37,954 nt of DNA from Candidatus Magasanikiibacteriota bacterium (GTDB taxonomy: Bacteria; Patescibacteriota; Patescibacteriia; Magasanikbacterales; UBA10003). Each line of letters opens with the position of its first letter. The stretch's first letter is position 1. This document shows positions 1,669-28,499 of the stretch, one piece after another. Location: the NCBI GenBank assembly GCA_016214465.1, contig JACROI010000025.1, positions 1 through 37,954 on the forward strand. Direction: 5' to 3'. The notes under the pieces were generated by a model. The model saw nothing but the letters and a program-made list of their open reading frames with translations, had not been told where the DNA came from and searched no databases. A program made the position numbers and the translations under genes.

Positions 1669-2072
1669 TGTCTTTGATTTGTCGAATGATCGCCTCGAAT
1701 CAAATCGGGGAGGAAAGTCCGAACGCCCCTTTAATAAAATAGAGGAAGTGGGTACCACCTAACGGGTGGGCAAGCTGGCAGGATATATGGTAAACCTGCC
1801 TGACGGACAGTGCCACAGAGACAATACTAACCCCGCAAGGGGCCAAAGGTGAAAAGTGAAGCGGTGTATCGCAATAATGACCCTAAAGGTCAAAATTACG
1901 TTTGCTACGCTTCTCATGTTTAGGCAACTAAACATTGTGGAAAACCCTACCTGGCGCAATCTCAAATACGAGAGCTTGAGCTCTGGCGCGAGCCACGGCC
2001 CAGATAGATGATCATTTCCCCGCTTTTGCAGGCGGCAGAAACAAAATTCGGCTTACGAGCAAATCAGAGACA
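1669..2072 (+). ncRNA. rnpB: RNase P RNA
   Basis: Conserved GAGGAAAGTCC, AGTGCCACAGA, AGATAGATGATC and ACAAAATTCGGCTTA motifs. P1 helix TGTCTTTGATTTG/CAAATCAGAGACA. Own promoter and terminator. Confidence 0.95.
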
Positions 2073-2218: not shown

Positions 2219-3226
2219 ATGAAAAAAATGCCGGACAATCAAATAACTTTCTATCAATCACCGGACGGCTCGGTGAATATTGAAGTATTATTTGCCGAAG
2301 AGAACATTTGGCTAACTCAAAAAAAAATGGCTGAACTTTTTAGCATTGACAGAAGCGTGGTCACAAAACATCTTAAAAATATCTTTAGCGAAAAAGAAAT
2401 TGAAGAAAAATCAGTTAGTGCAAATTTTGCACATACTGCCGAAGACGGAAAAACTTATGAAACACAATTTTATTCCCTCGAAGCCATTATAGCGGTCGGT
2501 TATCGCGTGAATTCCGAGCGCGGTACGCAATTTCGTCAATGGGCCACGAGAATTTTAAAGAATTATATCCACAAGGGTTATACTTTAGATGTTAATCGGA
2601 TGAAATATGGCTCTCGCTTTAGCACTAGATATTTTGACGAGCTTTACGAAGAAATCAAAGATATCCGCACGAGCGAACGGATTATTTATCAAAAAATAAC
2701 TGACATTTACGCGACATCGATTGACTATTCGCCCAAAGCGTATGAGAGCAAAAAATTTTTTGCTACGGTGCAAAACAAACTTCATTTTGCCATAACCGGT
2801 AAAACCGCGGCAGAAATTATCACGAATCGCGCCAACAGCAAAAAAGACAAAATGGGATTAACTTCGTGGAGACGCTCTCCGCATGGGAAAATAATGCCGA
2901 GCGACACGGTGATCGCCAAAAATTATTTGGACAAGAAAGAAATAGAGCACCTGAATCGCATCGGCAATATGTATTTGGATTATGCCGAGATGCAAGCGGC
3001 GCGAGGCAAAGCGATGTCAATGAAAGATTGGACGGAAAAACTCAATGCCTTTCTAAAATTCAGCGAATACGAAATTTTGACAAATGCCGGCAAAATCAGT
3101 CGCGAGGTGGCGGAGGCGTTGGCGCTAAAAGAATATGAAAAATTTAGAAAAATTCAAAATAAAAACTATATATCCGATTTTGACCGCGAGGTTAAAAAAC
3201 TTTTAAAATCTAGAAAAGACAGATAA
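2219..3226 (+). CDS. Virulence RhuM family protein
   Basis: ENIWLTQKKMAELF, YSLEAIIAVGYRVNS, FRQWA, IRTSER and FFATVQNKLHFA motifs. Confidence 0.9.
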   Translation: MKKMPDNQITFYQSPDGSVNIEVLFAEENIWLTQKKMAELFSIDRSVVTKHLKNIFSEKEIEEKSVSANFAHTAEDGKTYETQFYSLEAIIAVGYRVNSERGTQFRQWATRILKNYIHKGYTLDVNRMKYGSRFSTRYFDELYEEIKDIRTSERIIYQKITDIYATSIDYSPKAYESKKFFATVQNKLHFAITGKTAAEIITNRANSKKDKMGLTSWRRSPHGKIMPSDTVIAKNYLDKKEIEHLNRIGNMYLDYAEMQAARGKAMSMKDWTEKLNAFLKFSEYEILTNAGKISREVAEALALKEYEKFRKIQNKNYISDFDREVKKLLKSRKDR

Positions 3227-3323
3227 TCATCCCCCGCGAAAGCGTGGGTAGAAACAAAATTCGGCTTACGAGCAAATCAAAGACAATTCAACAACGCCTC
3301 CGGAATCGGAGGCGTTGTTGTTT
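3217..3323 (+). repeat. Duplicate of the rnpB 3' end plus terminator (att-like direct repeat)
   Basis: 3250-3279 is identical to 2037-2066 (30 bp). Flanking similarity covers AGAYAGATRATCAT and the ACAACGCCTC...GCGTTGT terminator. Confidence 0.9.
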
Positions 3324-3433
3324 ATAAAATAAAAAGACAATCATCTAGACATATGTTTGTTGCACACAGTCGAGACAATGGTTAGAAGTTATTGACCAAT
3401 CACTTGAGCAGAGATCACAGGCATACAGAATCT

Positions 3434-4063
3434 CTACTCACACACGAGGATGCCGTGACTCTGCCTATTGAGCGGATTGTTAAAGAAAAAAAGTTTGAAT
3501 TCACGGTGCGCGCCGCGCACACTAGCAAAGGGTACAAAAGTTTTACCCATACCATCATCCGCCCACCGAGAACTGACACTTATGGCAAAGACCCACTCCC
3601 ATCTTCTCATTTCTCCTGGATAATCGTACATAAAACAGGCAAGGTCGCCAACATCAGCCAAAGTACGGCCAGCGGCCACGAGACGCGCCGCAGCTTGTTC
3701 ACCGGTCTCATCATCCAATAATGGTTCAACCCGCAAATTTACCGCACGGATACCTGTCCACGCCAACTTGAAATGCTCCGGTGTTAAATGCCGATTTATA
3801 TTCACGACATTTTTTTTCCCCACCGCCATCTTGATTAGAGCTCGAAGGCCGATCGCCTGATTGTAGATGGTTCGGAATGGGCCCCGCTTGATCACTTTCA
3901 AGTTACCATTGCGAAGCCCGGCGATAAGATCAAGGTGGGTAACTGCCCATCGGATGATTTCCGGATGGTCAGCAGCCCATCCCAACTCATCCGCCGTAAA
4001 GTGTCAGGCACGACGTTTCTCGAGTAAGTCGAACAGAATCCCTTCGTCAATCCTCTGGCCCAT
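3434..4063 (-). pseudogene. Hypothetical protein interrupted by an in-frame TGA at codon 20
   Basis: SD GAGGAGG 5 nt before ATG at 4063. MGQRIDEGILFDLLEKRRA*HFTADELGWAADHPE continues in frame into ORF 3434..3985. Confidence 0.65.
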
Positions 4064-4245
4064 AGTATCCTCCTCGCCAGCAGATAATTCATCCCAACAA
4101 TCAATATTACTTAATATTGACCGCCAACAATGATACATTCTGCTGACAAACTGGCCGAGACCAATTCCCGGCCTTCTTTCTAGCTTATTTAACCTAAATT
4201 AAGCAAAAAGAAAGCCGGGAACTTAAAAAGAACGATCAACTTAAT

Positions 4246-4274
4246 TTTATACCACACATTATTAATTATGTCAA
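4246..4274 (-). promoter_or_regulatory. sigma70 promoter whose -35 overlaps the glnA stop codon
   Basis: TTGACA(4274-4269)-17 bp-TATAAA with TG extension. Confidence 0.55.
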
Positions 4275-5638
4275 TACACCTCCAAATACCTCTCTTTTTC
4301 CCACTCGGTCACAGCGATTCTGAATTCATCCCACTCTCGCATCTTAATTTCATAATACTTTTTGAACACTTCTTCGCCCAATGTGGCTCTCACTACCTCA
4401 TCTTTATCCAAAGCGCGCAGAGCGCCATATAAATCCGGCGGCAAGGTCTCAATGCCGCGACTGACTTTTTCCATTTCATTCAATTCATAAACATTTTCTT
4501 CAATGGATGCGGGACAAACACTCTTTTTTTCAATGCCGTCCAAACCGGCCGCGAGCATGCTGGCAAATACCAAATAAGGATTGGCTGATGGGTCTGGCGA
4601 GCGTAGTTCACAGCGCGTGGCTTTAGGTTTTTGAGGATTAATGCGCGGCACGCGAATCAAAGCAGAACGATTGGTGCGGCCCCAGCTCAAATATACCGGC
4701 GCTTCATAGCCGGCCACCAGCCGCTTGTAAGAATTCACCAGTGGATTCAAGATGGCGGACAAAGCTTTCACATGATTTAATTGTCCGGCAATAAAATATC
4801 GAGCCAAAGACGACAATCCATATGAATCGACCGGGTCAAAGAAAAGGTTTTGGTTGTCCTGAAACAAACTTTGATGCACATGCATGCCCGAGCCATTGAT
4901 TCCAAAAAACGGTTTGGGCATAAAAGTTGCGTGTAGCCCATAATGCGCGGCAATATTTTTCAACGCGTATTTTAGAGTAACCACGCTATCGGCCGCATTC
5001 AGGGCGTCGGTATATTTAAAATCAATTTCCTGCTGGCCATTGGCCACCTCGTGATGCAAGGCCTCCACATCAATGTTCAATTCCTGAAGCGCGCGCGTCA
5101 TTTCTTTTCTAACCTCGCCGGCTTTATCCAGAACTTGGTCAAAATAGCAGGCCTGATCGTGCGGCTCTTTCACCAATCCACCATCAAAATTTCGTTTCAA
5201 AAGAAAAAATTCCATTTCCGGGCCGACATAATAGGTGTAGCCGATATTCTTGGCGCGAACAATTTGTTTTTTTAAAATATATCGCGGGTCGCTCGCATAT
5301 GGCTCGCCGGCCGGTGTAAAAACATCACAGATAACGCGCGCGGTGACAGAATGCTTGATGGAATCATCTTTGAACAAGCCGTTGGTCCACGGTACAATCG
5401 CGAAAGTGCTCAAATCCAATTTCAAATACATATCGCTTTCAAAAATTCGCGCGAATCCTTCAATTGACGAACCGTCAAACCAAATGTTGTATTCAATGGC
5501 TTCGGGCAGTTTGGAAACCGGAATTGTCACGGCTTTTAATTGCCCCAATAAATCCGTGAACTGCAAGTCAATAAACTTGACATTGTTTTTTTGGCAAAGC
5601 GCCAATACTTCCTCCTTGTCCAAAGTATGGTCTGGCAT
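4271..5638 (-). CDS. glnA: Glutamine synthetase type I
   Basis: FDGSSIEGF, HHEVANGQQEI, ATFMPKP..GINGSGMHVHQSL, NSYKRLV.GYEAP and NRSALIRVP motifs. Start set at MPDHTL because the longer ORF overlaps tRNA-Asn. Confidence 0.96.
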   Translation of the reverse strand: MPDHTLDKEEVLALCQKNNVKFIDLQFTDLLGQLKAVTIPVSKLPEAIEYNIWFDGSSIEGFARIFESDMYLKLDLSTFAIVPWTNGLFKDDSIKHSVTARVICDVFTPAGEPYASDPRYILKKQIVRAKNIGYTYYVGPEMEFFLLKRNFDGGLVKEPHDQACYFDQVLDKAGEVRKEMTRALQELNIDVEALHHEVANGQQEIDFKYTDALNAADSVVTLKYALKNIAAHYGLHATFMPKPFFGINGSGMHVHQSLFQDNQNLFFDPVDSYGLSSLARYFIAGQLNHVKALSAILNPLVNSYKRLVAGYEAPVYLSWGRTNRSALIRVPRINPQKPKATRCELRSPDPSANPYLVFASMLAAGLDGIEKKSVCPASIEENVYELNEMEKVSRGIETLPPDLYGALRALDKDEVVRATLGEEVFKKYYEIKMREWDEFRIAVTEWEKERYLEVY

Positions 5639-5689
5639 ATGTTTGTGTGGATTGCCCACATTAAATAAATAATTTATTTTGCGACAAAT

Positions 5690-5761
5690 CTCTCGGGGAA
5701 GGAATCGAACCTTCACTATCCTCGTTAACAGCGAGGCGTTTTACCATTAAACTACCCGAGA
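5690..5761 (-). tRNA. tRNA-Asn (GTT)
   Basis: Cloverleaf: acceptor stem TCTCGGG/CCCGAGA, anticodon arm CTCG-ctGTTaa-CGAG, TTCGATT T-loop. No encoded CCA. Confidence 0.95.
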
Positions 5762-5779
5762 AAATTGACGCAAAGCCAT

Positions 5780-5812
5780 AAAATTAAAACACCCTCCAAG
5801 CGGTCGGAGGGT
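5780..5812 (-). terminator. Attenuator terminator (3:4 hairpin) upstream of tRNA-Asn/glnA
   Basis: ACCCTCCGA-ccgc-TTGGAGGGT stem followed by GTTTTAATTTT on the minus strand. Confidence 0.85.
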
Positions 5813-5838
5813 ATCTGATGCTATGATTTTCAGCGCAA

Positions 5839-5907
5839 TCAGAAAGCCCTCCGGCTCAAAGCGGAGTTATTATTATTGTTATTCAAGTTATACACAGTTC
5901 TTTTCAT
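5839..5907 (-). CDS. Poly-Asn leader peptide MKRTVYNLNNNNNNSALSRRAF (22 aa)
   Basis: ATG at 5907 to TGA at 5839. 7 Asn in 8 codons using mixed AAT/AAC. Overlaps alternative pairing segments of an attenuator. Confidence 0.85.
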   Translation of the reverse strand: MKRTVYNLNNNNNNSALSRRAF

Positions 5908-5913
5908 AAATAT

Positions 5914-5942
5914 ACTATACAATATCGGCTGGCCGCGGTCAA
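5914..5942 (-). promoter_or_regulatory. sigma70 promoter for a leaderless leader-peptide transcript
   Basis: TTGACC(5942-5937)-17 bp-TATAGT(5919-5914). The ATG starts 7 nt after the -10 box. The -35 overlaps the trpS TGA stop. Confidence 0.8.
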
Positions 5943-6919
5943 ATTAAACCAACTTTTTCTCTCACTTCCTTAATCTTTTTTTCTGCCAATTTTTGGGCGC
6001 GAACTTGCCCATCAGACAAAATTTTCAACACCGCTTTGTTATCAAAGGCGGATATTTTTTTCTGAATCGGTTGCAAAAATTTATTAATCTCTTGCGCCAA
6101 AGATTTTTTAAAATCCGCGTAACCCTGGCCGACAAATTCTTTTTCAGATTGCGCGATAGTTTGATTGGTTAATAAAGAATAAATTGTCAGAAGATTGGTG
6201 AGCGCCGGTTTGTCTTGGCCTGAAACAACATCTCGGCCGGAATCAGTGACGGCGCGAGCGATTTTTTTCTCCACTGTTTTAGTATCATCGGTCAAAGCGA
6301 TAAAATTAAAAGATGAAGCCGCGCTCTTGCTCATTTTCTTTAATGGATCATCCAATCCCATAATACGCGCGCCTTGTTTTTGCACCAAACATTCTGGCAC
6401 GACAAATGTCTCACCAAAATTTTCGTTAAACCGCCGCGCCAAAACGCGCGCCAATTCCACATGCTGTTTCTGGTCTTCGCCAACCGGCACAACGGCCGTG
6501 TCATACAGCAAAATATCAGCCGCCATTAAAACCGGATAAATGAACAAACCAGCATTGATATTTTCTTTATGCACAAGAGATTTATCTTTAAATTGCGTCA
6601 TTCGTTCCAATTCAGGCAGTTTAGTTATGGTATTTAAAATCCAAGCCAAATCGGCATGCTGCGGCACTTGCGATTGAACAAAAATTGTTGATTTTTGAAA
6701 ATCAAGCCCCAAAGCCAAATATATTTTCGCCAATTCAATTGTATTTCTCCTTAATTCTTCCGGCTTTTGACGCACAGTCAGGGCGTGCAAATCCACAATA
6801 CAAAAAATACTGTCGTATTTCTTGACCAATTCCAGCCACTGCTTAATGGCTCCCAAATAATTGCCCAAATGAATCATGCCGGACGGCTGAATGCCTGAAA
6901 AAAGACGAGGTGTATTCAT
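5939..6919 (-). CDS. trpS: Tryptophan--tRNA ligase
   Basis: SGIQPSG.IHLGNYLGA (HIGH), VPVGEDQKQH and KMSKS motifs. Confidence 0.97.
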   Translation of the reverse strand: MNTPRLFSGIQPSGMIHLGNYLGAIKQWLELVKKYDSIFCIVDLHALTVRQKPEELRRNTIELAKIYLALGLDFQKSTIFVQSQVPQHADLAWILNTITKLPELERMTQFKDKSLVHKENINAGLFIYPVLMAADILLYDTAVVPVGEDQKQHVELARVLARRFNENFGETFVVPECLVQKQGARIMGLDDPLKKMSKSAASSFNFIALTDDTKTVEKKIARAVTDSGRDVVSGQDKPALTNLLTIYSLLTNQTIAQSEKEFVGQGYADFKKSLAQEINKFLQPIQKKISAFDNKAVLKILSDGQVRAQKLAEKKIKEVREKVGLI

Positions 6920-9827: not shown

Positions 9828-9840
9828 AAATTTTAATTTT

Positions 9841-9912
9841 TGCCTCCAAGAGGAGTCGAACCTCTATTACAAGATCCGGAATCTTGCGTCCTATCCATTG
9901 AACGATGGAGGC
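9841..9912 (-). tRNA. tRNA-Arg (CCG)
   Basis: Acceptor stem GCCTCCA/TGGAGGC; anticodon arm CAAGA-ttCCGga-TCTTG; GGTTCGACTCC. Confidence 0.95.
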
Positions 9913-9913
9913 A

Positions 9914-11017
9914 TTAAATCAGTTTTCGTATTTTTTTTATTTGCTGAAATAATTTATACACTTTCGGCTGGAACGGCAGTTCGTAAGCGCCGGCAAAACT
10001 GTGCGTCTCTCCGCCAAAACCGCGCTTAAAACGGGTAATCCCGGTCCAGCTCGTTTTAAAATCAAAATCATTTTCATCATCCGGATTAATTCCCCCAAAA
10101 TCATAATAATGATAACCGTTCTGTTTGGCAAATTGAATCGCTTGCCAGTGCAAAAAATATGGAGCCATTAAATCGCGGCATTCTTTGGAAGATGCGCCGT
10201 GAACATAAATGAACGAATCGCCGAAACCGATAAAAATGCCGCCGGCTAACATTTTGTCTTGATAATTTACTAACAAAAGACGACAAACGGGAATTTGTAA
10301 CATTAATTGATAATATTTTTTTGCGTGTAATTTGATTTTATCGCGGCGAGAGGTTTCTTTCATCAAATTCCGAAAAACATCAAACCCAGTTTTACTGTCA
10401 CTGAATTTCAAATCTTTTTTTTCCGCCAATCGGATATTGTATCTGGTTTTTTGATGCATTTCCGTGAGTAATTGCTCTTCGGATTTGTTCAAATCCAACA
10501 ACAAGGTATGCGTCGGCTGAATGGAAGGCACTCGGTAATGCGTCATTGCGAGCGACCCCGACGGCAGTCGGGGAGCGTGGCAATCTCGTATATTATCAGG
10601 ATTGCTTCGTCGCTCCGCTCCTCGCAATGACGATTCTTGCGTCGTTTGTTCACTAAAATGGGGCTCAAACCGAAAAAAAACATGCCCATAATTAACAATA
10701 TTTTTTTTAATAAATTCAAACAATCTATTTATTCCTGGTTCATTATCGTTGGAGATTCCTCGCTCCGCTCGGAATGACAAGAAAAAAATCGGCCCGCGCG
10801 GACAATACAAATAACCCATTCCAAAGCCCAAATAATGTTCAATAATTTGCGCAACGCCAATTAATTCCATGCTGTCAAACACGCCAACACGCCACACTCT
10901 TCGGCCAAATTCCTTTTGAAATTCTCCCCAATCCCATGATTGCAAAAACTGGGCATGCGATTGCCCAGCCACAAATTTATTCCATTGTTCTTTATCATCA
11001 ATCAATCGGCATTGCAT
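9914..11017 (-). CDS. FemABX/FemX family peptidoglycan peptidyltransferase with in-frame repeat insertions
   Basis: FLQSWDWGEF, YCPRGP, KTRYNIRLAEKK, YDFGG and GITRFKRGFGG motifs. Confidence 0.88.
   Translation of the reverse strand: MQCRLIDDKEQWNKFVAGQSHAQFLQSWDWGEFQKEFGRRVWRVGVFDSMELIGVAQIIEHYLGFGMGYLYCPRGPIFFLSFRAERGISNDNEPGINRLFEFIKKNIVNYGHVFFRFEPHFSEQTTQESSLRGAERRSNPDNIRDCHAPRLPSGSLAMTHYRVPSIQPTHTLLLDLNKSEEQLLTEMHQKTRYNIRLAEKKDLKFSDSKTGFDVFRNLMKETSRRDKIKLHAKKYYQLMLQIPVCRLLLVNYQDKMLAGGIFIGFGDSFIYVHGASSKECRDLMAPYFLHWQAIQFAKQNGYHYYDFGGINPDDENDFDFKTSWTGITRFKRGFGGETHSFAGAYELPFQPKVYKLFQQIKKIRKLI
10541..10632. repeat. Full palindromic element inside the FemX CDS
   Basis: 12-bp perfect terminal inverted repeat CGTCATTGCGAG/CTCGCAATGACG. 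Translated as SSLRGAERRSNPDNIRDCHAPRLPSGSLAMT. Confidence 0.9.
10753..10779 (-). repeat. Variant half-element inside the FemX CDS
   Basis: TGTCATTCCGAGCGGAGCGAGGAATCT on the minus strand. Translated as LSFRAERGIS. Confidence 0.8.
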
Positions 11018-15504: not shown

Positions 15505-16206
15505 TCATCTATTCTCCGATTCTCTGATTTTTTGTTGAAGTAAAAATAAAAATTCTTTGACCAAATTTTCTTTAATCCAAATTTTTTGCTTTTCCAATAC
15601 CAATTCGCCAATACCTTGCAAAATATTATTCACTTTTTTATCATTGATAAAATCATACAAATATCTATAATACGCCGTCAAATCCTTACCTGTTTTTTCT
15701 TTTATGATGTCCGCGCTAATCGGCAAATTATTTTTTAGAAAAAAATACGCGTCAAATAAATCGCGATTGACAAATTTTTTTCTAGAAGATAAAGCGACTA
15801 ATTTATTGGCCACTAGCGCTGACTGTTCCATAACTAAAAAAGGGAAACCAAACAAACTCTTTACCTCATATTTTTCAAATTTCTCCGGTCGCGTGGAAAC
15901 CTCAATTTTAATATTGTGATCTTTGAGCGCATAAGACGACAGCAAAAAAATAGTGTGCTTTTTAATATATTTGTCTTTAACTTCTCCAAACTGTTCAACG
16001 ATCGTTGATAATTTGGCAAAAACATCTTTGGCCTGTGCTGGAGCCAAGAGATTAAAATCCAAATCCACTGAAAAGCGCGGCAGATTGTAAAAAAGATAAG
16101 CGGCAGTTCCGCCTTTAAAACCTAAAATATTTCGCAAGCTGTGGTCGCCGTAGATACTGATCAGGATTCTTTCCATTATTTCCTGATGTTTTAATTTATT
16201 TAACAT
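15505..16206 (-). CDS. abiEii: AbiEii/AbiGii family nucleotidyltransferase toxin (type IV TA)
   Basis: FKGGTA.......RFSVDLDF, K..AL and RDLFD motifs. Overlaps the upstream antitoxin gene. Confidence 0.88.
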   Translation of the reverse strand: MLNKLKHQEIMERILISIYGDHSLRNILGFKGGTAAYLFYNLPRFSVDLDFNLLAPAQAKDVFAKLSTIVEQFGEVKDKYIKKHTIFLLSSYALKDHNIKIEVSTRPEKFEKYEVKSLFGFPFLVMEQSALVANKLVALSSRKKFVNRDLFDAYFFLKNNLPISADIIKEKTGKDLTAYYRYLYDFINDKKVNNILQGIGELVLEKQKIWIKENLVKEFLFLLQQKIRESENR

Positions 16207-16771
16207 AAGTTTGATACAAATTTTGCAAACGGTTTTCTAATTTTTTATTCTGATAAATCTTCACAAATTCAAAACACATATCCCAATTTATCGGCCGGAT
16301 ATTGTCAAAATAACAATCTTTTTGCAAATATAAAGTATCTAAAATTGCCCGCTCCAAAACGGCGCTGGTGCAATCATTTGTTATTTTTAATCCGGTGATA
16401 TTAAAAAGTACCTCGTTTTTTATTTTCTGATAAACAAATTTTTGTTTACCGACTGTGACAACTCTGCTATTTTTAGCGATTGAGTATATTGTTGAATCAT
16501 ATTGAAAAATGACCCCGCTGGCGGCTAACACTGTTCTTAAACTTACATAAGACGGGGAACACAATTTATTGGCCAATTCCCAAACATTATAATTATCATC
16601 AAAAGCAAAAAACCCTTTTTTAATTCTTTTTAAAGCCCCGCTTTTTACCAGACGATAAACCTTTACTTTCAAATAATTAAGATCATCAATCTTCCACAAC
16701 ATTGCTAAATCCTTGGTGGAAAACACGGTTCTTTTAGTTTTAAGTAAAATTACAATTGAATTGTCAGACAT
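16196..16771 (-). CDS. abiEi: AbiEi family antitoxin/transcriptional regulator
   Basis: N-terminal wHTH (LKRIKKG), PSYVSL..L...G.I and ERAILDTLY motifs. Directly upstream of AbiEii. Confidence 0.8.
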   Translation of the reverse strand: MSDNSIVILLKTKRTVFSTKDLAMLWKIDDLNYLKVKVYRLVKSGALKRIKKGFFAFDDNYNVWELANKLCSPSYVSLRTVLAASGVIFQYDSTIYSIAKNSRVVTVGKQKFVYQKIKNEVLFNITGLKITNDCTSAVLERAILDTLYLQKDCYFDNIRPINWDMCFEFVKIYQNKKLENRLQNLYQTYVK

Positions 16772-19857: not shown

Positions 19858-22800
19858 CTATTTCAATTCAATGCTGAAAAACAAACTATTTTCCGTCAAT
19901 AATTCTTTTGTCTTCCAATCATAGGCAACAATACGAATGGAATAATTGCCGGCTGATAAGTTGACCGCCACCGGCTGTTTGACATTCAACGAGTCATTTT
20001 CACCCGCTTTCATCGTCCATTTGCCGCTTCCGGTCTGCATAATCTTTCCGTCAGCGCCCAACAATTGCCGCACCATTTTCACCACCTGTTTTGCTTCGGT
20101 GTTATTCGTATAACTATAATGGAAGTTCACCATGGTCGGCACCGGCACATTGGATTTTATCTTAGCCAAAATTGTCTCATCAAAAGCAATGTCAGAAGCA
20201 CTATTGCTCACTCCGCCCATAATAAACATTTTCTTTTTCAGCTTTTCCACTTGAATGTTAAAACTGTTTTCATCAATTAGCTTACCTGTCTTAGCATTCA
20301 AAATCTTAACCTTAACAATATACTCACCGGCTGTTAATTTTTTGTTAACTGCCTCTGATATATCTGCTTGAAATGATTTGCCGGTTTTTATTGTTTTAAC
20401 AGCTGAGGCAGTACTGACCACCTTGCCTTTGCTATTTAATAATTGGCGGACAATTTTAATGGATACTGCTTTGGCGCTATCATTTTGATATTCATAACTG
20501 AATTTCAGTATATCACCAGGCTGATAAGAAGAAGCTACGACATCGGTAATCGCCACCTTGGAAGAAGGCGTGGAGATGGTAATTTCTCCGGGCACAGACG
20601 ACGCGACGGTTTTTGGCTGAACAGTCGCGGTCGAGGCAACGGGAGCTGTTGCCGGCACAGTGGCCGGTGTTGCGGAAATACTCGCTATATTCAAATCCAA
20701 AACCGTGGCTTCGCTTACTCCGCCCAAAGATGTACGAAATTTAATGTACAATTTCTTCGCGCCCAGACCATCAGATAGTTTGAAACTTTTGGTCGTAACA
20801 TAACTTTCCCAAGAGGATCCTGAAAAATCCGTTTTTTCCGAAATGGCCATTTGCACGGCATCAGTAACATTGAACTTCAACACCACATCCAGAGAAGTTA
20901 AAGCATTTGCATTGCCACCGACTATGACAGAGGTGGTAGTAACTTTGGGAGCCGGCTGAACAATCGTGGCTCCGGCGCCGCCAGTGGTTGGAGCAACCGG
21001 AGCAGCGGAGTTGGAGGCAGAAGAAAATTCAGACTCTAAACCACCGGTGTCAGTGGCTGTGATTCTGTAATAATAAGTACTTCCATTGACAGCCGATGAG
21101 TCGGTATAACTATTGGTAGTGGCAGAACCAAGAGAAGAAAAAGTGCCATTGGCAGTACTGGAACGATAAATATCATAACCCTGTAAATCGCCTTCGCTAT
21201 TGGCTGTCCATGTAATGGAAACAGTGGCGTTGCCGGCAACCGCCGCCACATTGGCCGGAGCGCTTGGAGCCATGCCGTCAGACGGAGCGATTGGATTGAA
21301 TGAGGAAAAGTGAGATGTCTGGCCGGTATAAGCCAAAGTGGAAGCGCTGGCTGATGGTTCAATAAATTTACCACTGGAATCCTTGTAACCAATGGTGGTT
21401 GGCAAGGTTTGCCAATTGTCAGCCGTATCGTCCCAAGAAGCCATATTTACTTTTTCCAATTTAACCAAAGTCAATGCGCCCAAGGCAGTTGTCATAACGC
21501 TATTGGAATAACTGGCGCCGACAGAAACATCACTATTTAACAAGGTTACGGCATTGCCATCATTATCATAACTGCTAACTGTCTTGGCCTCTCCGCTAAC
21601 GGGCGTGCCGGCATTGCCGCCCACCACATTGGAAACCTCTTTTTCATTAAGAGAATACGGATTGGCTGAGTTAGCCAACGCGCCTTCCGAGGAATTGACC
21701 GAAACGCCGGCGGAAGAATCATTCATAGAGCCGCCATTCTGCGGAGTAAGCGATTGAGAAGTGGATCCGGAGAGCGAGGTGGCAGTGGTAGAAAGAGTAA
21801 TATCTTTGCCGCTCACATTGGCGCCACTGACAGCCACAATAGAACTGTAAGTGCTTTCAGTGTATCCATCTGCCGCGGCGGAAATTTTCCAATTACCATT
21901 AATGACTTTCAAAGAATAAGTACCGTCAGTGGCGGTGGTTGCAGTCACAATTCCTCCGCCCAATTTTTCCGCGCGCACCGTGGCGCCGGATGCCGCCGAA
22001 CTGCCAGCAGTAATCGTACCGGAAATGGTATAGGCGGCCGCGGTCATTGTTGTGGCTGAATCAGCCAACGCGCCGCTTGCGCTAATAGCCACGCTGGAAG
22101 CCGTATCAATGTAGCCGTCTTTGGTGGCGCTTACTAAATAGGTCGCGTTGGAAACTTTAGCGGAATAATTGCCGCTGGTGTCGGCCAAAACATCAACTTT
22201 TTCATTGGTTGAAGAATTTTCCAAATGCACCGTAGCTCCGGGCACAGCTGTACCGTCAGCATCTTTCACTGTCCCGCTTACATAATTAATGGCCGGCAAT
22301 CTTATATTAATTGATTCCGTGTTGGCATCCACTTCCACTTTCCAATAACCGCTGGCCGCGGTGGAGGTGGCCAGCACAGTATTACTGTCCGCACCAGACA
22401 CATTTAAACTGCTGTCGGAAACACCGGGAATAGTCACATTCATTAAATACATGTTGGTCGGATTGGTGCTGGTGACTGCATTTAATGCATTAGCTACATC
22501 ATATTGCGGCAACGATATTGTACTTGAAGCAACACCACTCCACGATTCCACTTTGTCGGTCTTCCCGCCGATTTGCATAAATTCCACCACTGCCTGAACA
22601 CTACTCGTGGCATTACCGCTGGAATCTAAGATATTAATTGTAACGGCGCCGGTTTTTGGAGCCAAAATATCATAAGGAGCTGTGGCAACAGTCCCGGCTC
22701 CATTAACCACAATACTTTGAGTGGAAGAAGACATTTCGCCTTGCGTTGGAGAAAAAGCAGTCATAGTATAAGTGCCTGGAGGAAGTTTCAAAGTGGAACT

Positions 22801-25659
22801 ACCGTTGGTGTCGGTCATTACACTATTGATATAGCTCGTGTTTTCGCCGGTATCGCTGGTATCCCCATCATTATTCAAGTCCCCGGTCGTACCCTGAACA
22901 ATTATTTGCACATTGCTCGTTCCCTCTCCGGAATCAAACACACCATCAGCATCGGCATCATTGCCAACACTCTTGGTGATCGTGGCATAATTAACAGAGC
23001 TGGTGTTGGGCTCAAAATTTTGTCCACTAGAACTGGAACCGCTAATAGTCACTGTTTTTTCAGGCAATTTTCCATAGTCAGGAGCAAACGCCTGAACTTT
23101 CCAAATACCATTTGCCACATACAAAGTATAATTTCCTGAAGAATTCGTAAATGTTTCTGAATGGCCCGGCCCATCGGTGCGATAGGCGTTGACCGGCGCG
23201 TTAGCAACCGGATTTGTGCCGTCAGTAACTTGACCTGAAATTGTGTAAGATGGCTTGCTGATAGTCAATGTCAAACTGGCGCTGGTCATGCTGGATAAAG
23301 CAATACCGGTGCTTGAACCATCAACGAACATTTTATCAGCGCCGCCATCATCTTTAATAAGAATTGACCTCTCCACGCCACCTGGCATGCCGGAAACGCT
23401 CGCACCTATTTTATACGAACCATAAGACAAATTTAGCGAACCTGTTCCATCGGCATTGGCTGCGGTATCGTTGCCAGATCCGCCTGCCGGAGAATACGCA
23501 AAAACATTGGCATTGGCAATTGCATTGCTTGACGCGTCTTTAACTGTAAATTTAATTGTCTTATTAGCCGCTGAGATATTGAAAGTTAAAGTTGATGGAT
23601 TTACAGAACAAGAAGATGGACAGCCGCTCACCTGCACTTCTTGCGGTTTTGGCGGCATCCAAGCTGTTGGAGCTGACGGCCCACCCTTGCCAAACATTTC
23701 CGTGGACATTTGCGGTCCAAAACCAACCATCCACACGCCATTGGTATTTAATTTTATGGAATTGGAAGTATTACCGGCAAGCGTACCATTCAAAGTGGAA
23801 GTGGCTTTTCTAAACGAACCTGGTCCTCCTGCAAAAATATCAATTGCATCATTGCTGAATGTGCCGCTGATATTCAAAGTGACAGTGGCACCGGTGGAAG
23901 CATCCACAACCGAGATATTCTGACTGCAAATGTTGGAAGAACAATTAGTTGAGTTAACATTGATTGGGCCTGGAAATCCTGCAGTGTAGCTCGTGCCGCC
24001 TGATTTTGCAAATTGTTCGGCTCCCAACATATATGTTCCAGCCACCAAATTTTGAAACATGAATTCTCCATCTTGTGCGTTAAAACGACCATTGGCAGTT
24101 GAGGAAGATTGCGGGCCGGTCATTGGCGACATTAAGAAAACATTAATACCATTGACCCCGCTAGCCCCGGACATCACGCGGCCGCGCACGGTGAAACTGC
24201 CGGCGGCCGAAGTGGAAAAAGAACTGGAAGACAATGTTTCTAAAACAGTGCCATCTGCTTTTTTAGTGGAAACAGTGGCGGAATTACCACTCATACCAAC
24301 TTTTGTCGCGTTGGAAGGATTAACTATTTGCGCGATGTCCATTCGCAAGAAATCATGCTGGTCGCCATCGCCGGAAGTCAGATTAGCTGTGCCGCGACGC
24401 GTAGCCACCGCTCCTAAAATAATCCTCACAGTACGCGAGTCTGTATTCACTATCACGCCATCACTAGCCGCGCCGCCAGTTGTCCAGCCGGATGGTAAAG
24501 TCCCTTCGCTTGTGCCAAAAACAACCGTGCCCGAACCAGGCCCGTTCAAATCATTATTCGGCGGACTGGCAGTGTCTTTTTTAGCATTAACAACATCGGT
24601 TCCATCCGGGAAAGCAATATCAATAAATCCGGCATTGGGAACTTGATAAGACAAAGGAATCTCCACGCCATAAATTGTACTCACACTAGCCATTGAATTA
24701 AATGGATAAACTTTAACGCCCGGAGCAAAACCGATTCCTGAATCAATAAAAGTTCCAACCATTGCCGGCGGCCCGCCCATCATTCCGCCCTGCATCATGT
24801 TGCCATCGGTGCCAAACATCGGCCCGGTCATACCGCCGCCGGTAAAATTACCGGTCTTGCCGCTGGATTGCGCGGTAGTGGTCGCGGCCGCGGCCGTGCT
24901 GGCGGCAATATCATTAAAACCAATATCCTTGGCGCTGGCCACACTGATGTTGACCAAATTATTGGCAACGATGCCAGTGATGCCATTCAAAGCCACGCTA
25001 CGACTGGGCGCGTCATAAGTGATGGTCGCCGCGGAAGTGGAAATGGTGGACTGTGTGGCTCCAGCGGAACTGACTAGATGAACAGTATAATTGGCCGGTT
25101 TCAAAACGCTATTGGCATAATTCAAATCACTGACCGAACCGGCCAACATTGGCTTGGAAAATACCACTTTCAAGGCGTAATCATTGGCTTGAGCGGAAAC
25201 TACTGTTGGAGAAGAAGTATCGGCGTTACCGGTGGTGAAAGTGCGCAAAAGAGTTGATGCCAAAGCATTGCCGGCTAAATCTTGTACGCCGGTCGTAACT
25301 GTGATGGTATAGGTGCTGGTGGCGGCCAAAGAATAATTTGGAATAAAAGTAGCTGTCCAATTATTGGAATCATAAGTTAAACTGCCGGCCACAGCCGAAG
25401 ACCCCAGTTTCACTAACACAGAATTCTCGGTGACGGTCGTTGGGTTCATGGCCTCGGAAAAACTAAAAATAATCGGCTTCAAAGTTGACACGCCGGTCGC
25501 GGTATCAGCCGGCACAGTATTATCAACAGTCGGAGCGGTAAGATCCCCGGTCGCGCTGGAACTGGTGTCAAAATCCGATTGATATTTAACACTGGTCAAA
25601 TAACCGGATGTTCCCGGATTTCCCAATGGGATTCCTTTGGAAGATGTCATTCCGCCCAA
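19858..25659 (-). CDS. Giant surface protein, C-terminal part (Ig-like Big_5, carboxypeptidase-regulatory-like repeats, FN3)
   Basis: S/T/G/A-rich 1933-aa frame. Contains APTV...FSFSEAMNP (Big_5), repeated ISGxVTD/VSGTVKD units, FN3 APSAPANV...W...GYDIYRS and DxDxDG loops. No signal peptide of its own. Confidence 0.8.
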   Translation of the reverse strand: MGGMTSSKGIPLGNPGTSGYLTSVKYQSDFDTSSSATGDLTAPTVDNTVPADTATGVSTLKPIIFSFSEAMNPTTVTENSVLVKLGSSAVAGSLTYDSNNWTATFIPNYSLAATSTYTITVTTGVQDLAGNALASTLLRTFTTGNADTSSPTVVSAQANDYALKVVFSKPMLAGSVSDLNYANSVLKPANYTVHLVSSAGATQSTISTSAATITYDAPSRSVALNGITGIVANNLVNISVASAKDIGFNDIAASTAAAATTTAQSSGKTGNFTGGGMTGPMFGTDGNMMQGGMMGGPPAMVGTFIDSGIGFAPGVKVYPFNSMASVSTIYGVEIPLSYQVPNAGFIDIAFPDGTDVVNAKKDTASPPNNDLNGPGSGTVVFGTSEGTLPSGWTTGGAASDGVIVNTDSRTVRIILGAVATRRGTANLTSGDGDQHDFLRMDIAQIVNPSNATKVGMSGNSATVSTKKADGTVLETLSSSSFSTSAAGSFTVRGRVMSGASGVNGINVFLMSPMTGPQSSSTANGRFNAQDGEFMFQNLVAGTYMLGAEQFAKSGGTSYTAGFPGPINVNSTNCSSNICSQNISVVDASTGATVTLNISGTFSNDAIDIFAGGPGSFRKATSTLNGTLAGNTSNSIKLNTNGVWMVGFGPQMSTEMFGKGGPSAPTAWMPPKPQEVQVSGCPSSCSVNPSTLTFNISAANKTIKFTVKDASSNAIANANVFAYSPAGGSGNDTAANADGTGSLNLSYGSYKIGASVSGMPGGVERSILIKDDGGADKMFVDGSSTGIALSSMTSASLTLTISKPSYTISGQVTDGTNPVANAPVNAYRTDGPGHSETFTNSSGNYTLYVANGIWKVQAFAPDYGKLPEKTVTISGSSSSGQNFEPNTSSVNYATITKSVGNDADADGVFDSGEGTSNVQIIVQGTTGDLNNDGDTSDTGENTSYINSVMTDTNGSSTLKLPPGTYTMTAFSPTQGEMSSSTQSIVVNGAGTVATAPYDILAPKTGAVTINILDSSGNATSSVQAVVEFMQIGGKTDKVESWSGVASSTISLPQYDVANALNAVTSTNPTNMYLMNVTIPGVSDSSLNVSGADSNTVLATSTAASGYWKVEVDANTESINIRLPAINYVSGTVKDADGTAVPGATVHLENSSTNEKVDVLADTSGNYSAKVSNATYLVSATKDGYIDTASSVAISASGALADSATTMTAAAYTISGTITAGSSAASGATVRAEKLGGGIVTATTATDGTYSLKVINGNWKISAAADGYTESTYSSIVAVSGANVSGKDITLSTTATSLSGSTSQSLTPQNGGSMNDSSAGVSVNSSEGALANSANPYSLNEKEVSNVVGGNAGTPVSGEAKTVSSYDNDGNAVTLLNSDVSVGASYSNSVMTTALGALTLVKLEKVNMASWDDTADNWQTLPTTIGYKDSSGKFIEPSASASTLAYTGQTSHFSSFNPIAPSDGMAPSAPANVAAVAGNATVSITWTANSEGDLQGYDIYRSSTANGTFSSLGSATTNSYTDSSAVNGSTYYYRITATDTGGLESEFSSASNSAAPVAPTTGGAGATIVQPAPKVTTTSVIVGGNANALTSLDVVLKFNVTDAVQMAISEKTDFSGSSWESYVTTKSFKLSDGLGAKKLYIKFRTSLGGVSEATVLDLNIASISATPATVPATAPVASTATVQPKTVASSVPGEITISTPSSKVAITDVVASSYQPGDILKFSYEYQNDSAKAVSIKIVRQLLNSKGKVVSTASAVKTIKTGKSFQADISEAVNKKLTAGEYIVKVKILNAKTGKLIDENSFNIQVEKLKKKMFIMGGVSNSASDIAFDETILAKIKSNVPVPTMVNFHYSYTNNTEAKQVVKMVRQLLGADGKIMQTGSGKWTMKAGENDSLNVKQPVAVNLSAGNYSIRIVAYDWKTKELLTENSLFFSIELK

Positions 25660-28382
25660 ATATTGCGCGCCACGCTCTGTTTGCCCGGAGCTGGCTGACT
25701 GCCAACCACATACGCCGGAAAGGCGTTACCAGTACCAAAATTTCCACCAATATCCGACACACTACTGTACATTCCCCCACCGGTTGAAAAAGGCAAAACA
25801 TATTTACCATCAACATTATTGCCCATGATCGGATTGCCGGCCGGATCTTTAATTCCGGTAGTCAAAGAAAAAATATAATTCTTGCCTGAGGTCAAGGCCG
25901 AAGTCGGAGTGAATTTTAATTGAGTTGTTGAGCCAACCGAGACCGAACCGGCAACCGCGCTGCCACCGACTTCGGTTAAAGAAACATTAGCGGACAAAAA
26001 AGTGGTGATATCCATGGCTTTGCTGAAATTCACTTCTATGGAAGAAATTGTGCCATCGCCTTTTAATGTTGGGAAGCCCATCATGTTGGGAGCCGGAAAA
26101 GAATTGGTCACTTTTGGCTGATTATAATCCCCGCCAGCGCCCATGGCGCCGCTAACCAATGTCAATGCTGGCAAAGAAACCACTCCGGAAGCTGGAATAT
26201 AAAAAGCCATAGAAAGATCGCCATAGCCGTCTTTCGCTATTTTCAAAGTGGCGCCGCCGGACGGACCGACATTGGCAAAACTGAAAGAACCGTCACTGCC
26301 GGTAGTCGCGGCGAATTGCGTGCCTTCAATCCAAACAGTGGCGCCGCTAATGGCCACGCTGGAACTATCATTAATCGTACCCGTAATGGAGGCGCTGCCC
26401 AAATTGCCGGAACTTAAAGTAACTGATATGGATTTACTTAGTTGCAGAGCCGTGGTTTGAATGCCGGTGCCAGTGGTGTCGTAAGTAACAGTATCAAAAG
26501 TTGGGTCAATGGTATAAACCTTGGTCTTGGCTGGCGTGGCTGAATCAGCCGCTTGCAAATAATATTTCAAAAGCGTTTTTCCCGTTCCCCAAGCAGTGGA
26601 GGTAGTGCTGAATTTATACCAACCGGAACCGATACTCGTGCCATAAATCGGTGTTGACGACGCCGGCGTGCAAGAAGCCGCGGCCGTAACGCAATAAATC
26701 AACTGAGTGTTACCGGCAGGTAAAGTGCCGCCATCATCATAAATTCTCGCTACCAAATTAAAAGTGGAATCAACACTGGCTTTGAAAATAGACGCGTGTT
26801 GAATGTTGGGCGCTTGGTTGTTTGATCCACCATAAGAACCGCCGGTGGGATTTTCCGCTGAAACAATGCGGCTATTTTGCGGTTCAGGAATCGTCCGAGT
26901 CACAAAATCAAAATTGTTGTTTTGTGTGTCCACACCATTGCCATCATCAGCGTCTTGCCAGGGATTAGAACCGCTAACCAGCATGCTGGCCGAAGTGGAA
27001 TCATTAAATGCCTTGCGTTCAATTGAAATTCCATCATTAGTACTTAAACCACTCGCTGCGCTACCTTCGCAATCTGCCAACACAGCATGGCCACCCCAAC
27101 AAACTTTGTCCATTACCGCGGTGGAACTGGCCGCGCTATTACTAATGTAAGCCGCTCCGCCAGGCACTAAAGAAGCAATGGTTGAGGTGGTATACACCGC
27201 GTCAGCACTGGAAGAAGCGGAAGAAGTAATCGGCGCTATCAATAAAAATTTATGGGATGGTATATTGGGCACCATACTTTCATTCAGCCATGTTAAAGGA
27301 ACATTGGTGTCAACAGTGCCAGCAGTATTTACAAAATGCAATTTTACGGTGGAAGTTGGAATATTCCCGCCGGAACGATTATACACTTCAATAAACTCGT
27401 CATATTGATCCGTGGCCGAACCGACTTTAACCTCTGAAATCAGCAACGGCACCTGCGCGCTCATAATGGAAAAAGCGGTAGTTCCAAAATTGGCCTGGCC
27501 AAAAGTATTTTTAACTCCATTGGACACAGTTACTGAATAGGTTCCGTCAGATGGGATGGTAACTCCGCTAGCCGCGGTCAGACGAACTGATTTATTATCC
27601 GGTAAAACAACAATGGAATTGATTGTTTGAGAAACGCCGGAAGCATTCTTCAAAATATAATTGGCAGATGATGTGGCATTGCCGGTATTCAAATCCAAAT
27701 TATCCGTAAAAGAAACATCCGCATTGGACGCGTTAACAAAAGAAACACTGCTAACGCTAAAACCACTCCACCCGCCACCGCCGCCAAAAGAAATCGCCCG
27801 GCTACTGGTTATGGCGGAAACTGTCGGTGAATTGCCTGACGGATTAACCACGATGCCATTAGTTGGAAAATTAACATAAATGGAATCTCCGGCCGCCCAA
27901 CCGGATGCTGTTTTAATCGCCACAAAAAAACTTGTGGGCAAAGAGCCATTGTCAGCCAAGGTATTATTGCTTCCGGTGGTAATGGTGGTGGCCGAACCAA
28001 CATTTACTGTGCTTTGCGAACCGGCAAACCCATCATTTTGCGGATCAAAATAATTATTGTTGTTAGAATCTTTAAAAACAACCAATTGAGAAATGTGTGA
28101 AGCCAGAGTGGCGTTGTTGGTTGGCACAGTGCTCGTAACAGTAACCGTGATGCTGGTCAAAGTCTCGCTGCCTCCAACACTCTTGTTCAAAGCAATACGA
28201 AAAACCGGAATATCATAACTGCTTGCCGTGGCCGACATGCCGCCTGTTGGCAAAAGTTCGTACGGACCGCTGGCTGTGACTACAGCGGCTTGAACAGGTT
28301 GAGAAATAAAAGCGGAAATTCCCAGCGACCAAAGTATGGTGCTGGCGACAGTGAACATCGTAAAACATTTTTTGAAAGACAT
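25647..28382 (-). CDS. Giant surface protein, N-terminal part (signal peptide, lamin-tail domain, Ig-like domains)
   Basis: MSFKKCF...VQA signal peptide; LLISEV....DEFIEVYN lamin-tail motif; a Big_5 domain. Ends abruptly inside the next Ig domain. Confidence 0.8.
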   Translation of the reverse strand: MSFKKCFTMFTVASTILWSLGISAFISQPVQAAVVTASGPYELLPTGGMSATASSYDIPVFRIALNKSVGGSETLTSITVTVTSTVPTNNATLASHISQLVVFKDSNNNNYFDPQNDGFAGSQSTVNVGSATTITTGSNNTLADNGSLPTSFFVAIKTASGWAAGDSIYVNFPTNGIVVNPSGNSPTVSAITSSRAISFGGGGGWSGFSVSSVSFVNASNADVSFTDNLDLNTGNATSSANYILKNASGVSQTINSIVVLPDNKSVRLTAASGVTIPSDGTYSVTVSNGVKNTFGQANFGTTAFSIMSAQVPLLISEVKVGSATDQYDEFIEVYNRSGGNIPTSTVKLHFVNTAGTVDTNVPLTWLNESMVPNIPSHKFLLIAPITSSASSSADAVYTTSTIASLVPGGAAYISNSAASSTAVMDKVCWGGHAVLADCEGSAASGLSTNDGISIERKAFNDSTSASMLVSGSNPWQDADDGNGVDTQNNNFDFVTRTIPEPQNSRIVSAENPTGGSYGGSNNQAPNIQHASIFKASVDSTFNLVARIYDDGGTLPAGNTQLIYCVTAAASCTPASSTPIYGTSIGSGWYKFSTTSTAWGTGKTLLKYYLQAADSATPAKTKVYTIDPTFDTVTYDTTGTGIQTTALQLSKSISVTLSSGNLGSASITGTINDSSSVAISGATVWIEGTQFAATTGSDGSFSFANVGPSGGATLKIAKDGYGDLSMAFYIPASGVVSLPALTLVSGAMGAGGDYNQPKVTNSFPAPNMMGFPTLKGDGTISSIEVNFSKAMDITTFLSANVSLTEVGGSAVAGSVSVGSTTQLKFTPTSALTSGKNYIFSLTTGIKDPAGNPIMGNNVDGKYVLPFSTGGGMYSSVSDIGGNFGTGNAFPAYVVGSQPAPGKQSVARNIWAE

Positions 28383-28499
28383 ATTCAAAAAAATTAAAAT
28401 CTTAATAAATTAAACTGTCTTCATTTTAACACTTTTCTAAATTAATTGACAGGTAGTTATTCACATGTCAATACACTTAAAAATAGTATGATTATCCGC

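Follow-up and report, generated by a model that had tools for sequence, protein, structure and literature searches.

A predicted asparagine leader-peptide attenuator ahead of an extra tRNA-Asn gene and a glutamine synthetase gene in a Magasanikiibacteriota bacterium

Why should a glutamine synthetase gene stand directly behind a gene for asparagine tRNA, and both of them behind a short open reading frame (ORF) full of asparagine codons? The question arises from contig JACROI010000025.1 of a Candidatus Magasanikiibacteriota bacterium (assembly GCA_016214465.1), of which we analysed positions 1 to 37,954 (hereafter the window, 37,954 nucleotides (nt) long). On its minus strand we observe, in this order, trpS, a promoter, the Asn-rich ORF, a set of antiterminator and terminator hairpins, tRNA-Asn(GUU) and glnA. 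An earlier interpretation made from the letters alone (the sequence-only reading) took Asn-tRNA to be a possible proxy by which glnA senses glutamine. Comparison of this locus with others indicates that the ORF and hairpins very probably constitute a ribosome-mediated leader-peptide attenuator that senses charged tRNA-Asn, and that the switch is most likely a regulator of Asn-tRNA supply, with tRNA-Asn as its conserved cargo and glnA or asnS as add-ons. The host, a member of the Candidate Phyla Radiation (CPR)/Patescibacteria lineage, is an ultra-small groundwater bacterium with almost no transcription factors. Its genome (G000; below, G-numbers denote genomes and L-numbers the loci compared) comprises 826,452 bases in 63 contigs, is 97.6% complete and has 42.6% G+C. 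The features that the argument draws on are as follows.

5839..5907, minus strand: leader ORF of 22 codons plus stop, MKRTVYNLNNNNNNSALSRRAF, with ATG at 5907 and TGA at 5841..5839
5847..5853, minus strand: 5' strand of the antiterminator, CGGAGGG, in the last codons of the leader ORF
5777..5816, minus strand: intrinsic terminator, a hairpin with a U-rich tail, free energy -17.1 kcal/mol
5914..5942, minus strand: sigma-70-like promoter, matching 10 of 12 consensus positions
5689..5762, minus strand: leader-linked tRNA-Asn(GUU) (5762..5689 by ARAGORN; 5761..5690 by the Rfam tRNA model, 73 bits)
5639..5688, minus strand: AU-rich spacer between the tRNA and glnA, 51 nt when counted from discriminator base 5690
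4271..5638, minus strand: glnA, a type I glutamine synthetase (GS) of 455 amino acids, with ATG at 5638
Contig C36, 1658-1732: canonical tRNA-Asn(GUU) of the same genome, with a plain promoter of its own, an encoded CCA and the D-stem GCUC/GAGC
5939..6919, minus strand: trpS (tryptophan--tRNA ligase), the upstream neighbour, given as context outside the switch

The leader ORF encodes 7 Asn among its 22 residues, six of them consecutive (codons at 5889..5887 and 5883..5866), and contains no Gln codon. Of the 48 tRNA genes in the source genome, only this tRNA-Asn has a short upstream ORF enriched in codons for the cognate amino acid. The CGGAGGG segment (5853..5847) ends 6 nt ahead of the stop codon and could base-pair with CCCUCCG (5811..5805) in the 5' arm of the terminator. 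The terminator consists of a hairpin of 13 pairs with the loop CCGC (5816..5787) and a U-rich tail (5786..5777), and it ends about 15-25 nt before the tRNA. When 5912..5763 is folded, the antiterminator form has the minimum free energy (-38.1 kcal/mol, z = -2.14, equalled by 7 of 200 shuffles), and the antiterminator duplex amounts to -15.3 kcal/mol, compared with a shuffle mean of -7.2. By computation, the antiterminator and terminator are mutually exclusive, and they are so placed that the antiterminator strand is masked by a ribosome at the stop codon and not by a stalled one.

The same design recurs at related loci. Leader peptides differ from locus to locus (MKYIFVNNNNNNNRPTGGMCLFVE, MEKLNQNNNNNNNSLPDGRAF, MKLYIQNNNNNNNNKPKRRA), but all retain the Asn run, and over 49 unique loci the leaders have a median of 17 codons and 6 Asn; the run is kept in these 49 despite differing upstream genes. 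A simple terminator lies 14-37 nt past the leader stop in 53/53 loci (median -13.8 kcal/mol), and a stricter terminator search found simple terminators in L110, L113 and L114. In 33 of the 53, the complementarity between the terminator 5' arm and the 32 nt around the stop codon beats 95% of shuffles, and folding without the terminator 3' arm yields the antiterminator in 16 of 19 loci. The stems themselves vary by lineage (CCCUCCG, CCCGCC, CUCUCCC, CUCCCC and others), with matching changes in the antiterminator strand. Sequence and comparison thus establish the parts of the switch, their conservation and their alternative pairings.

Transcription would start from a promoter with a -35 box TTGACC (5942..5937), a 17-nt spacer and a -10 box TATAGT (5919..5914). 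Its -35 box overlaps the trpS stop codon (5941..5939), and its -10 box ends 6 nt before the leader ATG. When positions 4000-6300 were scanned for consensus elements, this promoter (5942..5914) and the terminator-like hairpin 5816..5787, both upstream of the tRNA, were the only matches on the minus strand; the scan returned no terminator-like site between the trpS stop and the leader promoter. Of 50 unique loci, 49 have a counterpart of this promoter (9-12 of 12 positions), and in 46 of these 49 it ends 6-9 nt before the leader ATG. This spacing suggests a leaderless message, and the leader mRNA is probably leaderless or nearly so. At Rfam gathering thresholds, the window gives only tRNAs and RNase P RNA, with no match to a T-box or to a leader family (His, Trp, Thr, Leu or Phe leaders).

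The first gene behind the switch is not the only tRNA-Asn gene of its genome. The leader-linked copy has U1-A72, the discriminator G73, no encoded CCA and a non-canonical D-stem (GUUU/AAAC), and it coexists with the canonical copy on contig C36. Full-length relatives of the canonical type occur in many related genomes, including G018 and G039, which also have the leader-linked type. From this coexistence we conclude that the attenuated gene is, as far as sequence can tell, an extra and inducible paralogue with a distinct D-stem. Genes of this second type also occur in G030, G024 and G009 with a plain promoter and without a leader. In the window, the flanks of the leader-linked tRNA (5763-5775 and 5678-5688, minus strand) are mutually complementary (UUUGCGUCAA / UUUGUCGCAAA) and lengthen the acceptor stem; the flanks pair in a similar way in L108 and L109, and the pairing may represent a precursor-processing stem.

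The second gene is glnA: its product scores 532.1 bits against TIGR00653 (type I GS; cut-off 429.15) and matches both PF00120 and PF03951. Its best solved relatives, all full-length, are the Gram-positive and archaeal enzymes 7tfa, 7tdp, 4lnf and 8oow, which we take to be classed as GSI-alpha. The coordinates confirm what the sequence-only reading had stated of this gene, namely that it starts 51 nt behind tRNA-Asn (discriminator base 5690, ATG 5638) with neither an obvious U-tailed terminator nor a consensus promoter in between: the consensus scan returned no promoter-like or terminator-like minus-strand site in 5639..5689. The Asn leader that it had assumed likewise proves real, with 7 Asn among 22 codons and a terminator/antiterminator switch ahead of the tRNA. 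Its further proposal, that glnA is co-transcribed with the leader and tRNA-Asn, is one we regard as likely from the layout of the compared loci. A terminator separates the tRNA from glnA in 0/11 GS loci, as against 13/37 loci without GS in which a terminator starts within 25 nt after the tRNA. The tRNA-to-glnA spacer measures 22-50 nt in nine GS loci and 144 nt in G202. In four of the nine (G067, G083, G154 and G184) it is as short as 22-24 nt, too little for any promoter that does not lie within the tRNA.

Within the spacer of the source genome, a hairpin (5660..5646, UGUGG gcaau CCACA) stands 8 nt ahead of the glnA ATG. Its pairing is kept through different sequences across three congeneric genomes (of the GUGG..CCAC type in two and GGGGC..GCCCC in the third; L009 and L010 hold the equivalents), and the hairpin may help to stabilise or process the glnA mRNA. 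A candidate promoter in the same spacer was rejected: a TTGTCG box is conserved, yet no suitably spaced -10 box is common to G000, G001 and G002. At one GS locus (G037, L011), a gene for a LysE-type translocator (2881-3513; PF01810, 63 bits) is inserted between the leader-linked tRNA-Asn and glnA, and this amino-acid exporter/importer may belong to the leader-tRNA-glnA unit.

How far the arrangement extends is informative as to what the switch controls. GS is found in 14 of the 240 genomes of the order. At 11 of the 13 GS loci in the order for which upstream DNA is available, tRNA-Asn lies just ahead of glnA with an Asn-run ORF and a terminator upstream of it, a recurrence that argues against chance juxtaposition. 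Outside the order, 76 of 78 loci of GS relatives lack both tRNA-Asn and the leader, and the only two that have them are those with a GS at 91% identity to the one in the window. The leader is far more widespread. A census pattern in which four Asn codons precede the tRNA-Asn anticodon loop by 85-145 nt was found in 98/240 genomes of the order, of which 9 were judged to hold non-tRNA matches only, leaving about 88-89 genomes; the reversed control pattern was found in 20 of the 240. A BLAST search turned up 11 tRNA-Asn loci in other genera, 8 of which carry the module of leader and tRNA. Beyond the order, the pattern occurs in 9 of 128 genomes of an even sample of the class, representing nine families, and a clear leader ORF is seen in 4 of the 5 class-sample loci inspected.

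The leader also has several variants. In L133 (G076), the leader (MQFTR, N x18, KPPCCE) has the longest Asn run that we have seen, with 18 consecutive Asn codons. At L169 (G309), an Asn run and a terminator precede tRNA-Asn, with the run out of frame relative to the nearest ATG; this leader could be frameshifted, decayed or differently started. A genome from another family of the class (G341) carries two near-identical Asn-run/tRNA-Asn modules 3.4 kb apart on one contig (C5:55867-55998 and 59304-59434). By hand count over related loci, Gln codons occur in 7/11 GS-linked leaders and 14/38 others, a difference from which we draw no conclusion.

The second recurrent protein-coding cargo is asnS, called from coordinates over cut-off together with class II aminoacyl-tRNA synthetase domains. 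It follows the leader-tRNA module by 107-213 nt in G160, G187, G189 and G121, lies further downstream in G149 and G178, and stands behind glnA and one ORF in G211 and G212. The remaining downstream genes are miscellaneous, mostly unrelated to one another and in several cases located behind a terminator. What the recurrent cargoes (tRNA-Asn, AsnRS and GS) share is a bearing on the making of Asn-tRNA(Asn). Since the leader is far wider than GS (about 88 versus 14 of 240 genomes) and also precedes asnS, its distribution points to control of Asn-tRNA supply rather than to general nitrogen control.

To see what such control could act on, we turn to the Asn and Gln pathway genes of the source genome. 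Its asnS scores 448-519 bits, over its cut-offs (518.9 for NF003037, cut-off 414), and is found on contig C32 (201-1487), away from tRNA-Asn and without a leader. On the same contig lies the sole AspRS found (C32:2122-3474), which is of archaeal type and scores 506.5 against NF003483, 'aspartate--tRNA(Asn) ligase' (cut-off 353), TIGR00459 for the bacterial type not having been searched directly; lysS and an epmA-like gene are also present. A full GatCAB is encoded (gatB, 539.9 bits; gatA, 588.7 bits; gatC, PF02686 with 41.4 bits, beside gatA). No asnB-family gene exceeds its cut-off in this genome, the best match being glmS, and neither asnA nor the GlnRS gene glnS was found. With no asnA or asnB, Asn would be made only on tRNA, by the archaeal-type, putatively non-discriminating AspRS together with GatCAB. 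This tRNA-dependent and Gln-dependent route is plausibly the only route of Asn synthesis visible in the genome.

The tRNAs are compatible with it. The U1-A72 pair, which is common in bacterial tRNA-Asn generally and is therefore permissive rather than diagnostic, is present in both tRNA-Asn and both tRNA-Gln of the source genome, and tRNA-Asp and tRNA-Glu have G1-C72. PMC1635274 describes U1-A72 in tRNA-Asn and G1-C72 in tRNA-Asp as determinants for the bacterial amidotransferase.

On balance we favour an account in which the attenuator drives both tRNA-Asn and glnA and thereby raises the supply of Asn-tRNA(Asn). The strong promoter would start transcription at or beside the AUG of the 22-codon, 7-Asn ORF. 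When Asn-tRNA(Asn) is ample, the ribosome would reach the stop codon and cover the antiterminator strand at 5853..5847, the terminator (5816..5777) would form, and transcription would stop. When Asn-tRNA(Asn) is scarce, the ribosome would stall on the Asn run, leaving the antiterminator to pair with the terminator 5' arm, and RNA polymerase would go on to transcribe the second, inducible tRNA-Asn and, 51 nt further on, glnA. RNase P and a 3' nuclease would presumably release the tRNA from the co-transcript. Gln is the amide donor both for the GatCAB transamidation of Asp-tRNA(Asn) and for AsnB. The extra tRNA-Asn would serve as a scaffold for AspRS and GatCAB, and GS as the supplier of the amide donor, a rationale for glnA as cargo to which we give slightly less than even weight. 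A more specialised version, in which the locus is an inducible operon for tRNA-dependent Asn synthesis, with the paralogue (D-stem GUUN/NAAC) as a dedicated scaffold, GS recruited as amide supplier, feedback by the end product Asn-tRNA(Asn) and no other control of glutamine synthesis, is conceivable but on the unlikely side.

Several findings weigh against the Asn-tRNA supply account. The simple duplex test is non-significant in 20/53 loci, and the 21 sequencing runs listed for window positions 4900-6000, nearly all labelled groundwater metagenomes, are all DNA, with no RNA run among them. Families such as TIGR00458 include discriminating enzymes, and the AspRS of the source genome meets TIGR00458 only at threshold (368.9 versus 368.4), scores that in any case do not give specificity. 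Because AsnRS is present, a cell able to import Asn could charge its tRNA-Asn without the tRNA-dependent route; the indirect pathway is accordingly not an obligate one, and is either facultative or the sole route of Asn synthesis. Among the other GS genomes, an asnB-family gene exceeds the cut-off in G211 and G037, so the argument from a missing AsnB is not valid for all of them. With a partial match over the cut-off in G006 as well and none in G083, G154 and the source genome, asnB presence gave a mixed outcome and was dropped as a discriminator among genomes. GS also feeds GlmS and other amidotransferases, and the link to Asn is possibly one of several reasons for its presence. Among 30 rows, the 13 GS proteins fall into a single clade (100/100), so the 11 linked loci are not independent and the linkage may stem from a single event. 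Finally, two of the 13 GS loci are without the leader-tRNA module: in G060, glnA lies behind its own intergenic region, and in G169 it directly abuts a gene without leader or tRNA, trpS-like by eye from its C-terminus (no family scan). GS can therefore work without the module.

One further point, that no Shine-Dalgarno (SD) motif precedes the leader ORF, invites a different explanation altogether, in which the ORF is untranslated, the hairpin 5816..5787 does no more than terminate trpS, and unregulated read-through produces the tRNA. The absence of a terminator-like site between trpS and the leader would suit this explanation. The SD argument is blunted in this genome, where SD motifs are not enriched (7% at -20..-4 versus a background of 8% over 595 long ORFs), so that an SD-less leader ORF is nothing unusual, nor is an SD-less glnA, which also has no such motif; translation initiation in the lineage seems to be largely SD-independent. 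What makes the idea of an untranslated ORF extremely improbable is that the Asn run persists in 49 unique loci with different upstream genes, that a consensus promoter sits 6-9 nt before the ATG in 46/49, that in 33/53 the terminator arm is complementary to the sequence around the stop codon, and that tRNA-Asn alone among 48 tRNA genes has such an ORF. In the favoured account the leader would be translated. The single GS clade and the arrangements in G060 and G169 lend themselves to another explanation, that glnA landed next to the tRNA once, as a matter of history, and is expressed independently of the attenuator from a weak promoter in the tRNA gene or the AU-rich spacer; tRNA genes are common insertion points, and weak promoters in an AU-rich spacer can escape consensus scans. 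The four spacers of 22-24 nt are too small for a promoter, however, and the spacer holds no conserved element in a promoter's position across G000, G001 and G002, in genomes whose promoters are near consensus where present. Terminators behind the tRNA, found in 13/37 loci without GS and 0/11 with it, and a linkage that has outlasted the divergence of leader, terminator and tRNA sequences also speak against mere adjacency, which we consider decidedly unlikely.

The most serious competitor is the one closest to the sequence-only reading, which held that a Gln shortage would lower Asn-tRNA(Asn) and induce glnA. In its strong form, the main purpose of the locus is nitrogen or Gln control of GS, with Asn-tRNA(Asn) reporting the Gln pool and the attenuator acting as the sole, protein-free regulator of glnA. 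The wiring would be identical to that for Asn supply, and much of the gene content fits. The gatCAB genes are all present, as anticipated, and the expected dearth of nitrogen regulators is borne out: PII (PF00543) is found in 0/5 GS genomes, no MerR_1/GlnR-type protein (PF13411) was found in the source genome, and the only Sigma54_activat match there (PF00158), the mark of an NtrC-type regulator, is a ClpB-like AAA+ protein (NtrB, GlnD, GlnE and sigma-54 were not searched). GlnRS was not found, so amide aminoacyl-tRNAs depend on Gln, and glnA has no detectable promoter of its own. The circuit is thus possible, and an archaeal-type AspRS without asnA or asnB would provide the Gln-dependent route to Asn that it calls for; but asnS is present alongside, as it is over cut-off in 215/240 genomes of the order, and AsnRS can make Asn-tRNA(Asn) from imported Asn without Gln, uncoupling the two, so that Asn-tRNA(Asn) is not a clean readout of Gln. 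Nor does the leader track an obligate indirect pathway: with asnS nearly universal, an association between leader and asnS loss is impossible to see. Amt is found in 0/5 GS genomes, and GOGAT (Glu_synthase) was not found in the source genome, with only marginal 17-20-bit matches in G037 and G083, which argues that GS is not in an assimilation cycle needing control by nitrogen status. A leader with Gln codons would report Gln more directly, through Gln-tRNA(Gln) made by GatCAB, and that of the source genome has none. Since the attenuator is much wider than GS and also drives asnS, it appears to have evolved around Asn-tRNA, with tRNA-Asn (about 88/240) rather than glnA (14/240) as the core cargo. 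These points weaken nitrogen control as the purpose of the locus, and we regard it as unlikely.

The Asn-tRNA supply switch can be placed among known systems. In the classical leader-peptide attenuators of E. coli and Salmonella (trpL, hisL, pheL, thrL, leuL and ilvL), as here, a short ORF carries a run of regulatory codons, terminator and antiterminator exclude each other, the antiterminator 5' strand lies at the end of the ORF, and the position of the ribosome decides. The present leader differs from that class in sensing Asn, in having as cargo a tRNA gene and GS instead of enzymes of the pathway of the sensed amino acid, in an apparently leaderless mRNA that belongs to no Rfam family, and in its CPR host. 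A closer functional parallel is pheM, the leader-peptide attenuator of E. coli pheST, which encodes an aminoacyl-tRNA synthetase. In both cases a leader peptide senses charged tRNA and controls the charging machinery, the Asn leader preceding asnS in G160, G187, G189 and G121; unlike pheM-pheST, the first cargo here is the tRNA itself, and in the source genome asnS is elsewhere and without a leader. Transcription of tRNA genes together with the mRNA that follows them has a parallel in the E. coli tufB operon (thrU-tyrU-glyT-thrT-tufB): a tRNA lies directly upstream of a protein gene, and one transcript is split by processing, as we infer here. The attenuator ahead of the tRNA sets our locus apart, and we know of no attenuator control of the tufB operon.

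With respect to Asn metabolism, the source genome resembles Thermus and Deinococcus, which have an archaeal-type non-discriminating AspRS2 and GatCAB beside AsnRS and no AsnA or AsnB. It shares with them AsnRS, an archaeal-type AspRS, GatCAB, the absence of asnA and asnB, U1-A72 in tRNA-Asn and G1-C72 in tRNA-Asp, and differs in that the archaeal-type enzyme is the only AspRS found. To our knowledge, regulation of a tRNA or of GS by Asn-tRNA is not described for Thermus or Deinococcus. In open-access papers and preprints, we found no report of leader-peptide attenuation for asparagine, with a tRNA gene as cargo, or of glutamine synthetase. PMC2965389 does not mention asparagine, asnS, glnA or 'tRNA gene', and excerpts of PMC2704369 have no relevance to an Asn attenuator. 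Leader-peptide attenuation as such is textbook knowledge; Asn sensing, a tRNA gene and GS as cargo, an apparently leaderless leader mRNA and a CPR host set this case apart.

If the Asn-tRNA supply account is true, these CPR bacteria tune a tRNA, its synthetase and the enzyme for its amide donor with the ribosome as the only sensor. The locus would then provide a rare regulatory link between the Asn and Gln pools by way of tRNA-dependent amidation, and one could test directly whether CPR bacteria use an indirect Asn pathway despite the presence of AsnRS. Being short, self-contained and available in many sequence variants, the module lends itself to reporter tests.

Elsewhere in the window, a gene of the FemAB family (aminoacyl-tRNA-dependent peptidoglycan transferases; 9840-11017, minus strand) ends exactly at the start of a tRNA-Arg(CCG) gene on the same strand, a further case of a tRNA gene set tightly against a protein gene. 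A bacterial class A RNase P RNA is encoded at 1674-2071 (plus strand, 156 bits). Near the locus we also observe genes of accessory or mobile type: a RhuM-family gene (2219-3226, plus strand), and an AbiEii-type nucleotidyltransferase toxin gene that overlaps an ORF of 191 amino acids without a family, probably the antitoxin (15505-16771, minus strand). Two tandem and very large ORFs (1933 and 913 amino acids; 19858-28388, minus strand) contain Big_5 and CarboxypepD_reg repeats and probably encode cell-surface proteins.

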